A stretch of 64,000 bases of DNA from Candidatus Fervidifonticultor sextus (GTDB lineage: Bacteria; Sysuimicrobiota; Sysuimicrobiia; Sysuimicrobiales; Humicultoraceae). The stretch's first letter is position 1, and every line of letters starts with the position of its first letter. Position numbers: made by a program. The DNA is taken from contig JAVKHQ010000002.1 of the NCBI GenBank assembly GCA_031459875.1, forward strand, positions 1 through 64,000, read 5' to 3'. Below, piece by piece: positions 6,001 to 15,000 of the stretch.

Positions 6001-9000
6001 TGCGGGAGACCATCGCCGAGGCCTGCACGCCGCTGATCCGCAGCCTCGCCGCCGAGTTCACCGCGAACCGCACGCTGCAGGAAGACCTGACCCAGGTGGG
6101 CTACCTGGGGCTGCTGACCGCCATCGAGGGCTACGACCCCACCCGGGGGGTCAAGTTCGAGACCTACGCCCGGCCGCTGATCCGGGGCGAGATGCGCCAC
6201 TACCTGCGCGACTCCAACGACGTGATCCGCAGGCCGCGGTGGCTGCAGAAGGCCAACCAGCAGATCGACCTGGCCGTGGCGCGGACGCTGGCCGACCTCC
6301 GGCGGTTTCCGACGCTCGAGGAACTGGCCGCAGCGCTCAACGTGACGGAAGAGGGGCTGCGGGAAATCCTCCGGGTCCGCGAGGCGGTCCACCTCACCTC
6401 CCTCGACGCGGACACCCCCGAGGAGATGCTCGAGATCGACCGCCGGCTCATCCGCCACCGGGTCTACGAGTCGTTCCAGCTGCCCATCGAAGACCGCATC
6501 GTCCTCTGGGAGGCCTTCGAGAGACTGACGGCGATGCAGCGCCGGGTGCTGTACTACCTCTTCTTCCGGGATCTCTCGCAGCCGAAGACGGCGGCGCGGC
6601 TGGGCATCTCGCAGAAGCACGTCTCCCGGGTCCTGGCCAGCGCGCTGACCAGGCTCCGGGAGTTCCTCACGTAGCCCCCAGTTATTTCAGCTGATACCAG
6701 GAGGTGATGGCGATGCCGCGGCCGATGGCGCGCAGGGAAAAGGGGTCGAACCGCACCACGACCGTGGCGTTCTGGTTGGTATAGCTCCCGGCCTCCGGCG
6801 ACGACTGGTTGGCGCAGATCGTCCGCTTGCAGTGGTACATGGCGCCGATCTGATCCACAGTGCCCTGGGCACCGACGGCCATGCCGTCCATGGTAAACAT
6901 CAGTCCGTCCGTGATGAGCCGCTGGGTATTCCCGCCGCACAGGATCAGGCGCCCGGACCCGTTCGCCTGCTCTCCCGCACAGACGTTGGATGCCCGCTGG
7001 TCCGGCACGGCCTTGCCGAAGACCAGGATCCCGGGCGTCTGGCGACCTAACAGGGTCGAGAGGTCGTGGCGGTTGCTCACGCTGACCCCGGTGTTGAGGA
7101 CCAGGTCGCCCCGGACGACGAGGGTGACGTTGCCGGCGCTCCCGCCGAGGTTGACGTCCCTTGAGAAGCGATAGGTGTCGCTGAGGAACACCGTCCCCCG
7201 CAGATAGCACGGGCATCCGGCTGACAGACCCGGACACCCGGACGCGACGTAGTTGACGACCCGGTCGAACTGCGCGGGACTGTAGACCGATCCCACGGCC
7301 CCTGCCCCCGATGCCCGGTTGATCTCGTCGTTGAGGGCGTTGCCGGATGCCGCACTCAAGTGCGCCTGGGGGTCACACAGCGTCACGCTCAGCGGGCCGC
7401 TACACAGCTGGGGCAGCACCTGCCGGGTCATTTGGTTCATGTAGACATGCCCGACATTCCACGCATCCACCGCCCCGGGACAGGCGCCGGGGCTACTCGC
7501 CCGCAGTTCGCAGATGCTCTGCACATCGATCCCGCGGTTCTGGACCGTCACGCAGGCGTAGGAGGAGGGAGGAGTGCAGTTGGAGATGGGGCCGGTCGTC
7601 GGCTGCGCCTTGATGATGTCGCCGAAGGCGTACAGATTCGCGGGCAGCGGATCGTTGGCGTTGTAGGAGGGCCGCGCCGTCCAGCCGTACAACCGGAAGT
7701 CCTCGAACGTCCCTTCGCGGAGGGTCACGAACTCGGTGTTCTGCTCGCTCACCGCGTTGAGCCGAAGGCCGGTATCGGCGAAGTTGATCTCCCTGAATGA
7801 GCCCATGTGCCCGCCCGTGGGTTGACCGGGGGTGTTGCACGGGGTCGGAAATGGATTCCAACATGGGAACGGGGCGATAAAAGTTCTGGACGTCGCGCCC
7901 TGGGCCTGGACCAGCTCGACACCAAACAAGGCCATCAGGAACGGGGTCCCCGGGACACCGCAGGCACGGACCCGTGAGTTGATCCAGCGACCGAGGTAGT
8001 GCGCTTCCCCCAGCGCTTCCAGGGTCTTGAGGCCGGACGGGCAGGGGTCGACGGTCGCGGGCCCGGTGTCCACCCACCAGGTGAACCGGCCCCCCTGGCC
8101 GTAGGGCTCGACCCTCTCGCCCGCCGAGCCGCTGGGGTTCGTGTAGCTGAAGGGGTCGGCCGCCGCAAAGACCGCGGCCCTGGCCTCCGCCAGGGCCGCC
8201 TGGGCGTTGTGGAAGCTCCGCGTCAGCGCGTGCTGGATCGAAGCATGGGTGATGTCTGTGTGCATCAGCCCCACCAGGGCAATGCCGACGGCGGTCAGGA
8301 CGACCGTGATGGCCAGCACGATGATCATCGCCATACCCTGTTGGTCACGGCGCGCCACCCGCATGCTGACCTCCTCCCTTCCGCAGATCGGCCTCATCGG
8401 TTCTGCGGGACGAATACGGTCTGATTCACGAAGTCCGTCTGGTACCGGCGCCCGGACCGGAGGGCGCCCGGGGCCCGCTCGCGCAGGAAGACCTCCACCC
8501 CGCCCGCCAGGCGAGTGAACCGCACCTCGGCCACATCCCGGGCGACCACCGTATACGGGATCAACGTTGCCGGGGGCCAGGCGCTCACCGGAAACGCCGT
8601 GGAGGCATCGCACCGTCGTCGCAATTCATTCGACGCGGTGTCGCGCCATACGTAGATCGTCGCCTGCCAGTTGGGATACCCCTCGGCGGTCATCTGGAAC
8701 TGCCCGGTGCAGTTGACCCGCGCCGTGACATACCCGATGCATCCCTGGTACGGTCCGGAGCACGCGTAGGTGACCAGGCGGAACGGAGTCATCGTGGTCT
8801 CCTGCAGTTCCCGGGCCAGGCGGTCGATGGCCAGTCGCACATCCTGCTGCCTGTCGAGGCGCTCGGTGGTGTTGCGGGAGAGGACCAGCGTCGGGATGAA
8901 CACCTGGTAGAGGCTCACGACCATCAGCGAGAACAACACGACGCCCATGACCAGGTCGACGGAGGTCCGGCCGCGCTCGGCGCGATCGCCCGTGGGCATC

Positions 9001-12000: not shown

Positions 12001-15000
12001 TCGCAATCGCCAGGATGGAGAGCCCCACGACGACATCGGTGAGCACCGCGCCGCGCATCCCGGCCAGGCCTGCGCGGGGCAACACGGGGACGGTCCTTCC
12101 GCGGATCATCGCGTGGCCACCCCGGTGTGGGCGACGGTGAACGGCGCCGCGCCGTCGAGATCGCTGCAGGCAACCCGATAGAGCTCCACGGTCAGGAGGC
12201 GGACCGCCGAGGGATCGGCGCCGCTGCCCGCTGCGTCCCAGTCCCGCAGCAGGATCCGCCCGCACGAGAAGTCGCCGGGGAGGGCCGGCGCCTGCGCGTA
12301 GGGACCGGGCGAGGCCGGGACGCGGAAATCACAGGGAACGGTGGGGCAGGCGGCGTCCAGCTGCGCAAACCCCAGCTTGCGCGTGTGCTCGGTGACCGCC
12401 TGCACCCAGACGGTGGCCTGCGTGCGCAGCCGCGCGCCCTGCTGTTCGTCGCTGTTCCCCCTGCCGATCAGGCGCAGAGTCCCGACGATGACGCGCCCCG
12501 TGAACACGACGACCATCACGATCAAGAGCGACGCGATGAGCACCTCGAGGGTGGTGAAGCCCGCATGCTGCCGTCTGCACGGTGTCCGGCCCATCGTATC
12601 GTCGACTCCTCTTGGTAGGTTAGCGCCCTACTGTGACCCGGCCGGTCATGGGGGCGATCGCCACGCGATAGGACCTCCCCCCCAGGGTCAACGTGACGGC
12701 CTGGGGTGCGCCTCCGCTGAGTGACTGCGGGGCTCCCGATCCGGCGAAGATGACGGCCCGCCGCGTGGCGTCGATCTGGCACGGACCCGACACAGCCGGA
12801 GGCACCGCAACGTTGATGCCGGCGGCGTACTCCTGGCCTGCGTTCGCCACCTTGATGGTGGCCCCGACCTGCACCTGGGCCGGATCCTGTTCGATCGGAT
12901 CGACGTAGTCCACGGCGTAGATGTCGTACCCGTTCTGACGAAAGCACACTTCTACGCGCGGCCCGCGTCCGGCCCTCGAGACGGCCGTCTGCTGGGCCAG
13001 GCGGAGGTCGGCCTGGATCAGGTGGGCAGCATTCTGGAGGGAGCGATCGGCGAGGTAGCCGAGGTAGAGGGGCACCGAGAGCCCGACCAGGACGGCCAGC
13101 AGGGCGACAGCCACCACGGCCTCGAGCAAAGCAAATCCGCGGGGCTTCACGCTCGACTCCACCACCGGCCGCCCCATCCTCCATCCATCGCCCAGAAACA
13201 AGCGAAGAGGGCTCAACGTCCCTCGCCCTCTTCGGCAGTCCAGCCGACCAGGCGGTGCCTGGCCCTGAAACTTTGCGCCCCGCGGATCGCTCCGGGGTAG
13301 CCTTTGTCGGAGGCCAAACCCGTCTATCTCTCCGAGTGCCCGAATCTCCCGCACTTCAGACTACCAGAGTCGTCCGGCAGCCGGCATCGTCCGCCGGGGG
13401 GATTCTGCCCTACCCCTTCGGACAGCGCCACTGCCGCCTGCAGACCTGCCGTCCGGCACCCTCCCTGGAAGTTCGCGCCGACGACCCGACCCGGGGTCAC
13501 GGATCGGCCGCCGCAGCCGGAACCGCCACGGTCCCCTCCCACGACTGGCCGCTGGTCGTGCCCAGGGCGTCCCCGGAGCCGGGGCCCGCCGCGGGGTGTG
13601 CGCGCAGCACCCACAGGCGCATCAGCACCACGTACAGGATGATGGCCGTCGGAACCGACACCAGCCAGGAGTAGCGCAGGAAGATCACGCCCAGCACCGA
13701 GGCGACCGCATGGGCCACGTACGCCGCCGGGTTGATCCCGCCCCTGTAGGTGTAGGGCCCGTCGTACCGGAAGAGCCCCGGGACGTTCAGACGTCGCCGG
13801 CGGACGACATAGTAGTCGGCCAGCATGACCCCGGCGACCGGCGAGAGCGCGGCGCCCACCGACGGTAGGTAGGTCAAGAACGCGCTCACCAGCCGCCAGG
13901 GCATGACCGCGACCAGCCCGATGGTCCCGCCGATGAGCACGCCGCGGGCGAAACTGATGCGCGGCGCAAAGACGCTGCTCAACACGTAGCCCGGCGCGTA
14001 GAGGTTGGCGGCGACGTTCGTCGAGAGCTGGGCCAGCAGGATGATGACCAGACCCACCAGGACCATCAACCCGCCCAGGGCCGCGCCGATCGCCTCGACG
14101 GGGTTGCCGTACCCCGTGAAGACCTTCCCGAAGTACCCCACCGACGCAAAGAGCATCATGCCCAGCGTCAGGCCCGGGAGCTGGCCCAGCAGGCTGTGGC
14201 GGTTGCGGGCGAGGAACCCGCGCGCGCCCGGGGTGGTCCGCACGAACCGCGTGAAGTCCGGGATGTTGTCGGCGACGGTGATCCAGTAGGACAGGTTCGC
14301 CGTCACCGCGGCCCAGAACGGCAGCGGCTGGATGATGGGGAAGTGCAGCACCTCTGCCCACCCGCGCTGCGACCCGAGGAGGTAGACCACCCACCCCGAC
14401 AGCAGCAGCAGCGCCGGCGCCGCCAGGTTCTCCACCAGTTTGATGCCGTGGATGCCGCGCATGGTGATCCAGATCTGGAGGGCCCCGAACGTCCAGTACC
14501 AGAGCCACCAGTTGGAGTACCCGGTCAGCAGCCTGACCGAGAGGTCGATGGCGGTGGCCCCGAAGTAGGTCTGAATGGCGAACCAGCAGACCGCCACCCC
14601 CGCGCGCAGCAGCGACGGTAGCCAGGCGCCGCGGACGCCGTAGGCCGCGCGGAGGTAGACCGCGTAGGTCACCCCGTGCTCAATGCCGATATCGCCGTTG
14701 AGGACGGACACAACGCCCACGACGAGGTTGCCCACCGCGATGGCCAGCAGGGCGTCTGTCAGGGAGAGCCGGCCGGCGAAAGAGGCCCCCAGCAGGAACA
14801 CCCCCATCTGGGCCACCATCCCGAACCACAGCCAGATGAAGTCCAGCCAGCCGATGACCCGCTGGGCGGGCCGGGTGGGCAGGATGTCCCGGTGGACGAG
14901 GGTCCCCTCCGCCCGCACGGGGGCGGAGGGGACCGCCGCATCCAGACTCACCTCACCTGCCCCCGGCGACGGGGACCGGGACCGGCGCCTCGCCGCGCTC

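Follow-up and report, generated by a model that had tools for sequence, protein, structure and literature searches.

The window, a stretch of 64,000 nucleotides (positions 1 to 64,000 of contig JAVKHQ010000002.1) from Candidatus Fervidifonticultor sextus, carries two adjacent cassettes of pilin-like genes on the minus strand, A and B, each led by a c-di-GMP-I aptamer. A sigma factor gene on the plus strand is convergent with cassette B. The features, in order of position, are:

5878-5902, plus strand: promoter-like motif of the sigma gene, a strict motif match
5910..6674, plus strand: SigB/F/G-type sigma factor, 254 aa, with Sigma70 r2, r3 and r4 domains
6682..8364, minus strand: B3, second ComZ-like tip pilin by predicted fold, 560 aa
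8394..8999, minus strand: B2, pilin-like protein in the GspJ position, 201 aa, weak GspJ/HpsC matches
9002..9424, minus strand: B1, GspI/PilV-like minor pilin, 140 aa, GFGTIE motif
9464..9491, minus strand: hairpin B, putative weaker terminator, GAAGAGGGC / GCCCUUUUU, loop of 10 nt, then AUGUUUGUG
9489..9571, minus strand: c-di-GMP-I aptamer B, RF01051 53.3 bits (cut-off 35)
9759..11453, minus strand: A4, ComZ-like tip pilin, 564 aa, GspK/PilX-type N-terminus and predicted beta-solenoid
11465..12109, minus strand: A3, prepilin-like, GspJ/PilW position, 214 aa, RG/AVLTD N-terminus, then a hydrophobic helix
12106..12594, minus strand: A2, prepilin-like, GspI/PilV position, 162 aa, GFTTLE, then a hydrophobic helix
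12620..13150, minus strand: A1, GspH/FimT-like minor pilin, 176 aa, Pfam GspH 30.4 bits (cut-off 21)
13194-13203, minus strand: U-rich tail of hairpin A, GCUUGUUUCU
13204..13233, minus strand: hairpin A, putative intrinsic terminator, GAAGAGGGC / GCCCUCUUC, loop of 12 nt, read from the sequence
13231..13312, minus strand: c-di-GMP-I aptamer A, RF01051 42.3 bits (cut-off 35)
13336..13361, minus strand: promoter-like motif GTCTGA-N14-GGGCAC of SigB/F-type look, upstream of aptamer A, function putative

Cassette A most likely encodes minor pilins in the GspH-I-J-K order, ending in a ComZ-like protein. A1 also matches N_methyl (20.8 bits) and has the leader MKPRG/FALLE, whereas A2, A3 and B2 have no family match at curated cut-offs. 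The NCBIfam matches of A2 are weak, and Pfam and NCBIfam-type profile searches returned none for A3, whose start overlaps the A2 stop (ATGA). Orthologues of A2 occur in four related cassettes, and A3 has orthologues too. A4 (g01032) matches PilX_N with 22.7 bits (cut-off 25.5, not reached) and, at its N-terminus, GspK (E 2e-8). Its predicted structure (AF2, pLDDT 84.6) finds ComZ 6qvi as the top Foldseek match (E 3e-11), and in VIA-align 2 the two superimpose over 400 residues (Z 23.0), ahead of the ice-binding-protein solenoids as the next family (Z 14).

Cassette B most likely follows the I-J-K order and ends in a ComZ-like pilin with a beta-solenoid head. B1 stays under the NCBIfam cut-offs with both gspI (E 1.7e-5) and PilV (E 2.3e-4), and the orthologues of B2 have G-x-x-x-V-E/D N-termini. 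For B3 (AF2 pLDDT 87.8), the top Foldseek match is again ComZ (E 1e-6), and VIA-align 2 finds an ice-binding-protein-type solenoid (residues 139-539, Z 14) and ComZ (Z 12.6). The profiles of A4 and B3 share residues ~9-164, and the two sequences are unrelated past this pilin domain. The prepilin motifs and the GspH match listed in the earlier note are all present (GFALLE in A1, GFTTLE in A2, GFGTIE in B1), and the large proteins, which it had named from weak likeness, are now better described as ComZ-like tip pilins by predicted fold.

Taken by family, the best matches are to type II secretion (T2SS) pseudopilins (GspH by Pfam; gspI, gspJ and GspK by NCBIfam), the N-terminus of B3 aligns with an Xcp pseudopilin (Z 6.0, VIA-align 2), and the genome encodes one secretin and several GspE/PilB-like ATPases; the cassettes might then form type II secretion-like pseudopilus tips for protein secretion and not exposed pilus tips. 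We consider this improbable, as the whole-protein fold match is the type IV competence-pilus protein ComZ and not GspK with its helical insert, and the genome also encodes PilT-like retraction ATPases and PilA-type pilins (four PilB-like and two PilT-like ATPases, two PilC and one prepilin peptidase). The authors of the ComZ structure, in the available text, themselves describe Thermus minor pilins as resembling T2SS pseudopilins (PMC6561018).

A pilus tip is thus the assignment we prefer, and its closest known counterpart is in Thermus thermophilus, like the present organism a thermophile. The order pilA1-pilA2-pilA3-comZ matches that of cassette A, with three small pilins followed by a protein of ~550 aa (PMC8578077, available text). 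Like A4, ComZ (PDB 6QVI) is described as joining a GspK-like pilin domain to an ice-binding-protein-type beta-solenoid, and Glu5 is absent from the N-terminal helix of both ComZ and the large protein here (PMC6561018). However, sequence identity to ComZ amounts to 13-16%, the window has no major pilin gene after the large protein, and it holds two cassettes (with more elsewhere in the genome) that are riboswitch-led and have unrelated solenoid sequences. ComZ/PilA2 form the tip of the T. thermophilus competence pilus (PMC6561018, available text); DNA binding by the window proteins is putative. A search of the literature pairing ComZ with c-di-GMP found no link of a riboswitch to comZ.

Both aptamers lie where the earlier note had placed them, on the minus strand and 80 nt (cassette A) and 64 nt (cassette B) from the start codon, within its range of 29-85 nt. 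The positions that we take to be G20, A47 and C92 of the consensus read G, A and C in both. Aptamer A is 96% identical to its orthologue in G002, a 95%-identical relative, and its P2 and P3 stems show compensatory changes among eight related pilin-cassette leaders, in which two-sided changes keep the pairing in 7 of 32 predicted pairs. Genome-wide, rescanning gave the same counts and scores as before: 11 class I aptamers over the RF01051 cut-off (42.3-70.1 bits; cut-off 35) and a single class II match at C27:15821-15906, which scores 48.8 bits with RF01786, under its cut-off of 53.5, and 65.1 bits with the c-di-GMP-II-GCG model RF03170 (cut-off 47.9). Pilin-cassette aptamers are 71-96% alike and at most 70% alike to the others. 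Several such aptamers per genome are normal for the order: RF01051 matches occur in all 41 genomes searched, with 1-12 per published genome, so that the 12 singled out earlier are not exceptional.

The class I-GGC label given earlier to some aptamers does not hold. The RF03167 consensus has CGCGAAG, whereas every one of the 11 class I aptamers differs at the defining nucleotide and reads CGCAAAG. RF03167 scores higher than RF01051 in eight of nine rescanned aptamers outside the window. These scores, together with the fit of the C27 element to the GCG variant model, a class for which we know of no validated ligand, would suit a different ligand from c-di-GMP, for instance 3'3'-cGAMP or that of a variant class. 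We regard this as very unlikely: RF01051 is the best model for both window aptamers, and all 11 class I aptamers, besides lacking the variant heptamer, keep GGC at the site where cGAMP-selective GEMM-I RNAs have A.

In both leaders, the hairpin begins within the last 3 nt of the aptamer, and 7 nt are common to the P1 3' strand and the hairpin 5' arm, so that the two cannot coexist. At 37 °C, both full leaders have a free minimum-energy fold made of P2, P3 and the hairpin, hairpin B included. With P1 imposed, the fold of leader A is less stable by 11.8 kcal/mol at 37 °C and 6.5 kcal/mol at 65 °C; for leader B the penalties are 10.8 and 5.1 kcal/mol. The pattern of GAAGAGGG, a variable loop and CCCUCUU, followed by a U-rich tail, recurs in six of the eight related leaders, and hairpin A is kept in orthologous leaders although the loops differ; the remaining two of the eight (secundus_A and G020_2nd) have no such hairpin. 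Since the ribosome-binding sites lie at least 30 nt past the hairpins, translational control is unlikely. A hairpin with a U-rich tail directly after the aptamer, its 5' arm overlapping P1, most likely means that c-di-GMP would switch both cassettes ON by antitermination.

The putative terminator is the weakest link of this explanation. A terminator scan of 6400-13800 called no site, hairpins A and B included, because their loops of 12 and 10 nt exceed its rule of 3-8 nt; the folding energies of the hairpin segments do not stand out from those of shuffled sequences (z -1.0 and -1.2). Hairpin B has just four G-C pairs, and on its own its segment favours a different fold. In G002, aptamer B is cleanly deleted, yet the hairpin is kept and B1-B3 are intact (dN/dS 0.15-0.19), which is hard to reconcile with a strong constitutive terminator there. 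The hairpins could be incidental, with control through Rho or RNA stability, or the switches could be OFF switches, as class I riboswitches of Clostridioides difficile uniformly are in the available text of PMC6200980. The aptamers at C1:200662, C7 and C1:193300 have a separate terminator and may be OFF types, as may the B3-type leaders of L062-L064, whose different three-hairpin layout could act in the opposite direction. For the window leaders we judge these possibilities unlikely, given the mutually exclusive P1 and hairpin, the recurrence of hairpin position and U-rich tail, and a layout equal to that of the Geobacter pilM ON switch (PMC9262584, available text).

Upstream of aptamer A there is probably a SigB/F-type promoter. 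The strict motif, GTCT[AG]N-N13-15-GGG[CT]A[TCA], has 43 matches in the genome, of which five lie no more than 60 nt upstream of an aptamer. Such a motif stands before 5-8 of the 12 aptamers, as it does before pilin genes and the adjacent sigma gene, and in relatives a loose form precedes 15 of 33 aptamers. No sigma-70 promoter was found. Co-occurrence suggests that the motif belongs to the window's sigma factor, which scores 174.7 bits with TIGR02980, under its cut-off of 234, and is 55% identical to a riboswitch-led sigma factor on C1. Synechocystis PCC 6803 SigF, a group 3 sigma factor that controls pilA1, is similar: in the available text of PMC2532724, a SigB/F-type sigma gene has a motif like its own promoter, and a -12 element (GGGTA/GGGCA type), together with a TAGGC/GTCTAG-like element upstream of it, stands before pilin genes. 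Unlike there, the motif here also precedes riboswitch leaders and would combine sigma and RNA control, and its assignment comes from co-occurrence.

Neither the strict nor the loose motif precedes aptamer B. It is quite possible, though not what we favour, that the locus is one transcription unit with two serial riboswitches, in which aptamer B is a promoterless internal attenuator of cassette A transcripts; cassette B would need two ligand-dependent read-throughs and hence a higher c-di-GMP threshold. The 187 nt between the A4 stop (9759) and aptamer B (9571) show no U-rich terminator, L070 has the same tandem of A4 homologue, aptamer and new cassette, and purifying selection on B1-B3 in G002 fits as well. 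A GC-rich hairpin does follow the A4 stop, however, weak look-alikes of the motif lie upstream of aptamer B and of the L053 aptamer, and the strict motif is found upstream of the second aptamer of L070.

The link between aptamer and pilin cassette recurs in relatives, partially. With flanks of 3.5-4.5 kb, an upstream aptamer on the same strand is found at six of 13 loci of the A4 type and at four of the 12 informative loci of the B3 type; the other seven and eight have none. The cassette gene order is kept in the aptamer-bearing homologous loci; in L070, the second aptamer leads an H-I-J-K set, as in the window. The earlier failure to find aptamers near homologues of g01032 is explained by flanks of +-1.5 kb, which are too short for an aptamer 1778 nt upstream of A4.

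We consider it reasonably probable that the two co-oriented cassettes each consist of a c-di-GMP-I riboswitch and genes of a minor-pilin priming or tip complex, turned ON by antitermination. Transcription would start upstream of aptamer A, probably at the SigB/F-type promoter. Without ligand, the leader would fold into P2, P3 and the hairpin (GAAGAGGGC...GCCCUCUUC and U-rich tail), halting RNA polymerase. With c-di-GMP bound, P1 (CCUCCG with CGAAGAGG) would form and remove 7 nt of the hairpin 5' arm, and polymerase would read through into the cassette. After cleavage by the genome's only prepilin peptidase, the products would prime a pilus capped by either solenoid head, so that raised c-di-GMP would, if this mechanism is true, alter what the tip carries for adhesion or DNA binding. 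The two riboswitch-led sets most likely build a type IV pilus tip in a hot-spring bacterium of a little-known phylum.

The kind of control is known, from C. difficile pilA1 and Geobacter pilM; the target and the member, in Sysuimicrobiota, are new. Cdi2_4 of C. difficile likewise belongs to a type IV pilus gene, pilA1, in whose leader it acts as an ON switch on transcription, in a genome with 16 c-di-GMP riboswitches against 12 here; it is of class II and precedes the major pilin of a monoderm, whereas class I aptamers here precede minor-pilin/tip cassettes, and the genome encodes a secretin (PMC6200980, available text). In Geobacter metallireducens, a GEMM-I ON switch before pilus genes has, as predicted for the window, mutually exclusive aptamer and terminator folds; its ligand is c-GAMP, its target the assembly genes pilMNOPQ, and its strand arrangement differs in detail (PMC9262584, available text).

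By annotation, the 12 aptamers precede pilus-related and c-di-GMP turnover genes; the genome has six GGDEF domains. Three minor-pilin cassettes are among the targets; the class II variant stands before a fourth ComZ-like protein, and the list also contains a TPR-MshEN-PilB ATPase, a SigF-like sigma factor and two HD-GYP proteins. Profile matches on other contigs bear out those named earlier (DUF4900 57.3 bits, DUF7305 36.5 bits, an MshEN and T2SSE ATPase, two HD_5 proteins of HD-GYP type). The proposal that c-di-GMP acts through RNA on pilus-like fibres and its own turnover agrees with this annotation, apart from the GGC label and the C51 operon. There, the first ORF is a 124-aa PAS/HisKA fragment and the 195-aa DUF7305 protein lacks a prepilin N-terminus, and we reject it as a pilin operon. 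At C10, an ISL3 transposase adjoins the aptamer, as previously noted.

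The two aptamers that head the cassettes, aptamer B (9489–9571, minus strand) and aptamer A (13231–13312, minus strand), align with the class I c-di-GMP model RF01051 over model positions 1–87 of 87 in an Rfam scan of the whole window, with scores of 53.3 and 42.3 bits, respectively, against a curated cut-off of 35 bits. The assembly (3.05 Mb, 67 contigs, 70% G+C) holds 11 matches above this cut-off, scoring 42.3–70.1 bits, and one class II element at C27:15821–15906, which scores 48.8 bits against RF01786 (cut-off 53.5) and 65.1 bits against RF03170, the 'GCG' variant. These rescans of window and genome reproduce every aptamer coordinate, count and score of the earlier note, which had reported twelve aptamers. 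Both window aptamers carry GGC..., CGC-A-AAG and UGC-CG where they align with the consensus, and both are canonical at G20, A47 and C92 (Vc2 structure numbering), which we take to be the ligand-contacting nucleotides of class I. The class label 'I-GGC' used in that note does not stand: the consensus of RF03167 is CGCGAAG, with G at the A47 position, yet all 11 class I aptamers read CGCAAAG. RF03167 outscores RF01051 for eight of the nine rescanned aptamers outside the window, and the A47-position column is a mismatch in all three RF03167 alignments printed. The C27 element fits the GCG variant model, for which we know of no validated ligand. The papers that our search found to name these variant models do no more than list them (e.g., PMC12452182). 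In support of P2 and P3, seven of 32 predicted pairs stay paired despite changes on both sides in eight related leaders, a set of sequences akin to one another in which such covariation is supportive and no statistical proof. Judged from sequence, the window riboswitches are real and ordinary in their class; the direction and the effect of switching are predictions.

Downstream of each aptamer lie a hairpin that is a putative terminator and a run of pilin-like genes.

Features of cassettes A and B, 5' to 3' on the minus strand
13204–13233, minus strand: hairpin A, GAAGAGGGC-12 nt-GCCCUCUUC, then GCUUGUUUCU
12620–13150, minus strand: A1, 176 aa; leader MKPRG|FALLE; Pfam GspH (PF12019) 30.4 bits, cut-off 21
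12106–12594, minus strand: A2, 162 aa; GFTTLE motif
11465–12109, minus strand: A3, 214 aa; start overlaps the A2 stop (ATGA)
9759–11453, minus strand: A4, 564 aa; PilX_N 22.7 bits, below cut-off; NCBIfam GspK N-terminus, E 2e-8
9464–9491, minus strand: hairpin B, GAAGAGGGC-10 nt-GCCCUUUUU, then AUGUUUGUG
9002–9424, minus strand: B1, 140 aa; GFGTIE motif; best weak matches GspI and PilV
8394–8999, minus strand: B2, 201 aa; weak GspJ-type matches
6682–8364, minus strand: B3, 560 aa; weak GspK N-terminus and DUF7305 matches

Aptamer B starts 187 nt after the stop codon of A4. A1 is a GspH/FimT-type minor pilin by its score above the cut-off and its prepilin N-terminus (N_methyl 20.8, cut-off 21.2); it alone passes a curated family cut-off, and the other cassette assignments come from motifs, gene order and fold. 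Sequence searches against solved structures returned nothing meaningful for A2, A3, A4 and B3 (best E 0.63–1.3) and N-terminal helix matches only for A1 (E ~0.05). The gene order, H-I-J-K in cassette A and I-J-K in cassette B, matches that of the minor pilin or pseudopilin sets responsible for priming type IV filaments.

In both leaders the 3' tail of the aptamer, CCGAAGAGG, is able to pair with CCUCCG of the 5' end to form helix P1, and a 9-bp hairpin starts within the last three aptamer bases. Because 7 nt are common to the 3' strand of P1 and the 5' arm of the hairpin, the two structures are mutually exclusive. At 37 °C the unconstrained minimum-free-energy fold of either full leader consists of P2, P3 and the hairpin; forcing P1 costs 11.8 (A) and 10.8 kcal/mol (B) at this temperature, falling to 6.5 and 5.1 kcal/mol at 65 °C. 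From the affinities of class I aptamers, an energy gap of such size could be paid by ligand binding. The ribosome-binding sites are situated well past the hairpins in both leaders, and the design is that of a predicted ON switch acting by antitermination. A like design, ON by antitermination, is described for the GEMM-I riboswitch of Geobacter pilM (PMC9262584), whereas the class I riboswitches of C. difficile are reported as OFF switches, opposite to the direction predicted here (PMC6200980).

A simple scan of 6400–13800 called no terminator, the loops of 12 nt (A) and 10 nt (B) exceeding the limit of the tool; the folding energy of the hairpin segments is no better than that of shuffled sequence (z −1.0 and −1.2), and hairpin B is weak. 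The support for the switch reading is therefore comparative. RNAalifold applied to eight aligned pilin-cassette leaders (window A, window B, G002, G005, G015, M3-S, Ca. F. secundus and G020) yields P2, P3 and the hairpin, whose pairs are retained, with varying loops and extensions, in six of the eight and absent from two. The B3-type leaders of loci L062–L064 have a three-hairpin layout that is not confidently readable. Within the genome, CCGAA-GAGG continues seven of the 11 class I aptamers; the remaining ones, with separate terminators, may have another mode of action.

The predicted models of the two large proteins are of good quality (AlphaFold pLDDT 84.6 and pTM 0.83 for A4; 87.8 and 0.85 for B3), and the best PDB match of both in Foldseek is ComZ of Thermus thermophilus (6QVI; E 3e-11 for A4 and 1e-6 for B3). 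With VIA-align 2, A4 matches 6qvi_A with Z 23.0 (rmsd 8.7, 400 aligned residues, model range 49–564), and the next group, the ice-binding-protein solenoids, lies well below at Z ~14 (4nu2, Z 14.1, residues 141–532). For B3, the 4nu2 solenoid gives Z 14.0, 6qvi_A gives Z 12.6 over 247 aligned residues, and the N-terminal residues 11–137 match an Xcp pseudopilin (Z 6.0). Both models thus match the ComZ fold, in which a GspK-like pilin domain is combined with a large beta-solenoid, triangular and of ice-binding-protein type. In ComZ, an FfIBP-like solenoid is inserted into the GspK-like domain ahead of its last strand (PMC6561018); in A4 the predicted order is four strands at 84–140, the solenoid, and a last strand at 553–561 (strand order only), and a small pilin aligns across the model range 54..564. 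ComZ is reported to bind PilA2 and DNA and to be needed for transformation and not for piliation, and its position at the pilus tip was argued on steric grounds (PMC6561018). The Thermus gene order pilA1-pilA2-pilA3-comZ (TT_C0854-0857; PMC8578077) equals A1-A2-A3-A4, unlike cassette B, which has just two small pilins. From fold, domain make-up and gene order we name A4 and B3 ComZ-like tip pilins, a model-based prediction in which the role of the head may concern DNA, a surface or something else.

A paralogous relation of A4 and B3 beyond the pilin domain was considered and rejected, as their similarity is confined to the N-terminal part: BLASTP aligns the N-terminal helix alone (E 3e-5), and profile comparison finds a common region at residues 9–164 (probability 97.5). 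A database of 5.8 billion clusters holds 24 homologues of A4 and 110 of B3, nearly all unnamed. Some B3 relatives of ~700 aa (P0055, P0057, P0059, P0061, P0064 and P0069) carry a C-terminal, peptidoglycan-binding SPOR domain, which is odd for a supposed pilus-tip protein.

RF01051 matches occur in all 41 searched genomes of the order, with 1–12 aptamers per published genome and 13 and 14 in the unpublished G013 and G022; the 11 class I aptamers here thus lie at the high end of a normal range. Homologues of the largest cassette gene are present in Ca. F. octavus (95% identical), Ca. F. tertius and Ca. F. secundus, of a genus placed in Candidatus Sysuimicrobiota, formerly CSP1-3 (NCBI taxonomy). 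The earlier note had found no aptamer within 1.5 kb of A4 homologues and took the pilin link as not shown to be conserved; the aptamer sits 1778 nt 5' of A4, beyond such flanks. We rescanned flanks of 3.5–4.5 kb, dropping beforehand the matches of G013 and G022 and those spanning the N-terminal helix alone. A same-strand upstream aptamer is present at 6 of 13 A4-type loci (L042, L043, L048, L052, L068 and L069) and absent within these flanks from L044–L047 and L049–L051. It is likewise present at 4 of 12 informative B3-type loci (L053, L062, L063 and L064), and absent from L060, L061, the locus of G002 and five paralogues in G027; L059 and L065, which have no upstream DNA, stand outside this count. 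At the aptamer-bearing loci, the small pilin genes that separate aptamer and large gene are orthologous. The tandem cassette layout recurs in L070, where an aptamer and a new H-I-J-K set stand behind the end of an A4 homologue. Pilin-cassette aptamers are 71–96% identical to the two window aptamers and other aptamers at most 70%, a pattern suggesting that aptamer and cassette duplicate together. Two of these loci hold two aptamers each: L068 at 1–69 and 1293–1375, and L069 at 515–599 (minus strand) and 1605–1687 (plus strand).

In G002, a sister species whose proteins are 95% identical, alignment of L042 (G002:C64) to window 9489–9585 shows aptamer B cleanly deleted and the hairpin kept. B1–B3 are intact there, with dN/dS of 0.15–0.19 against the window copies. 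This state would fit a leaky hairpin or transcription reading through out of cassette A, and the deletion warns against regarding hairpin B as a strong terminator.

When the single best-scoring aptamer of each relative genome is considered (28 loci), no downstream ORF was flagged by the pilin motif filter, and inspection by eye shows a pilin-like N-terminus in one first ORF (L015). The sample is dominated by other targets, so that pilin cassettes are one of several target classes. Secreted G8/CEMIP beta-helix proteins recur behind the best-scoring aptamers (5 of 24 scanned proteins; L020, L026, L029, L031 and L034), as do HD-GYP proteins (4), PilT-like ATPases (2) and sigma factors (2). Relatives also have aptamers that are tandem, closely spaced or divergent, as in L017 (G034:C15, 276–363 and 455–540), L068 and L069.

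The genome encodes four PilB-like and two PilT-like ATPases, two PilC, one secretin, one prepilin peptidase and six GGDEF domains, together with ~26 plausible prepilins in at least 8 clusters, seven of which stand behind aptamers (motif search; 54 raw matches, many false). The genes behind aptamers outside the window include the following.

Genes next to aptamers outside the window
C1:193300, plus strand: 772-aa TPR-MshEN-T2SSE ATPase
C1:200662, minus strand: SigF-like sigma factor, Roadblock/LC7, then I-, J-, K- (680 aa, DUF4900) and H-like pilins
C1:205514: solute-binding proteins
C10: ISL3 transposase next to the aptamer
C13 and C30: HD_5 (HD-GYP type) proteins
C27, class II variant: Thr/Pro-rich secreted protein and 482-aa protein (L072:4722–6170, minus strand)
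C51: 124-aa PAS/HisKA fragment (L073:2036–2410, minus strand) and DUF7305 protein without a pilin N-terminus

The 482-aa protein on C27 is clearly homologous to the B3 family (hhalign probability 99.8, E 1e-29), so that two riboswitch classes precede related ComZ-like proteins in one genome, which hints that the GCG variant responds to the same signal as class I or to a related one. The K-like protein of 680 aa on C1 shares the N-terminal helix alone with the A4 family (probability 63). In G002 an intact PAS-HisKA-HATPase-receiver kinase stands behind an aptamer like that of C51 (L035:1606–3075, plus strand; G002:C76), and the genome studied here seems to have lost most of this gene. Of five pilin-type operons claimed previously, three pilin cassettes and one further ComZ-like protein (C27) are borne out; the C51 case, with its kinase fragment and no pilin N-terminus, is unsupported. 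MshEN is a domain family that binds c-di-GMP (PMC11731258), so that the messenger may act on the riboswitch-led MshEN ATPase both through its RNA and through the protein itself. The region C1:187000–206000 (L071) is a pilus supercluster of pilC, pilT-like and pilB-like genes, the riboswitch-led TPR-MshEN-PilB gene and the sigma/Roadblock/I-J-K-H operon, likewise riboswitch-led. A third aptamer of the region stands ahead of the solute-binding proteins, and a GGDEF gene is located at C1:207577. ComEC and DprA are encoded, and since they are found likewise in 10–11 of 14 control genomes they say little on competence.

Convergent with cassette B is a SigB/F/G-type sigma gene (5910–6674, plus strand), 55% identical to the riboswitch-led sigma factor whose gene comes first after the C1:200662 aptamer. 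Its Sigma-70 r2, r3 and r4 domains all score above the Pfam cut-offs, and it scores 174.7 bits against TIGR02980 (curated cut-off 234.35); it is therefore group-3-like and not a certified SigB, SigF or SigG member. A simple promoter scan of 6400–13800 found no sigma-70 promoter. A strict motif, GTCT(A/G)N-N13-15-GGG(C/T)A(T/C/A), matches at the following sites among others.

Strict motif matches
5878–5902, plus strand, window: GTCTGG-N13-GGGTAT, 8 nt ahead of the sigma ATG
C1:181203 and C1:183431: just ahead of two PilA-type pilin genes
C1:159662: ahead of a further pilin gene
C42: ahead of a PilT-like gene
C1: upstream of the sigma operon

The strict motif is not enriched genome-wide (43 matches, versus 44–53 in block-shuffled genomes), and it is non-random in placement only: five of the 43 matches fall within the 60-nt stretches upstream of the 12 aptamers, which together make up 720 nt of 6.1 Mb. 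A looser form precedes eight of the 12 aptamers and, in relatives, lies within ~87 nt upstream of 15 of 33, versus 0.01 expected per site. The motif resembles SigB/F-type promoters and recalls the TAGGC/GGTAA elements from which the autoregulated SigF of Synechocystis drives pilA1 (PMC2532724). We infer that the window sigma factor would read the motif-bearing promoters, and the arrangement suggests an autoregulated pilus sigma regulon layered over the riboswitches. A tRNA-Leu (CAG) gene (5705–5792, plus strand) lies directly upstream of the promoter-like motif of the sigma gene.

Riboswitch control of type IV pili by cyclic dinucleotides is established for C. difficile pilA1 (class II, ON; PMC6200980) and Geobacter pilM (GEMM-I, c-GAMP ligand, ON; PMC9262584). 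In open-access full text we found no c-di-GMP riboswitch ahead of minor-pilin or ComZ-like cassettes and no link between ComZ and a riboswitch, and only reviews were found to mention c-di-GMP riboswitches alongside minor pilins or pseudopilins. New are the target, the tandem cassette layout and the phylum of the riboswitches. Where riboswitch control concerned the major pilin in C. difficile and assembly genes in Geobacter, it is here extended to the minor-pilin/tip complex, which decides what a pilus binds, and second-messenger control is linked to tip proteins of the ComZ type, described in a single Thermus study. It is conceivable, if rather unlikely taken as a whole, that c-di-GMP, via riboswitch-led duplicating cassettes, chooses the tip-mounted beta-solenoid head (ComZ-like, possibly DNA- or surface-binding) and does not simply set piliation, that two serial riboswitches provide two thresholds, and that the SigF-like sigma factor, riboswitch-controlled elsewhere, supplies the promoters, making a feed-forward AND gate. 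The main text of the paper describing the phylum lacks the words c-di-GMP, riboswitch, pili and pilus (PMC11604079), and for Sysuimicrobiota (CSP1-3), which are uncultured, the loci offer a concrete map of how surface behaviour may be regulated. The short leaders, as predicted simple ON-type class I designs, could if validated be thermostable c-di-GMP sensors.

Two other RNA matches lie in the window. The Vibrio antisense RNA AS9 match (RF02820, V_AS9; 40453–40558, plus strand; 53.3 bits, cut-off 50) is barely above the cut-off, has many non-canonical pairs and falls in a stretch of 69% G+C; in this phylum it is probably spurious. An FMN riboswitch aptamer is found at 42547–42694 (minus strand; 92.5 bits, cut-off 66.2).
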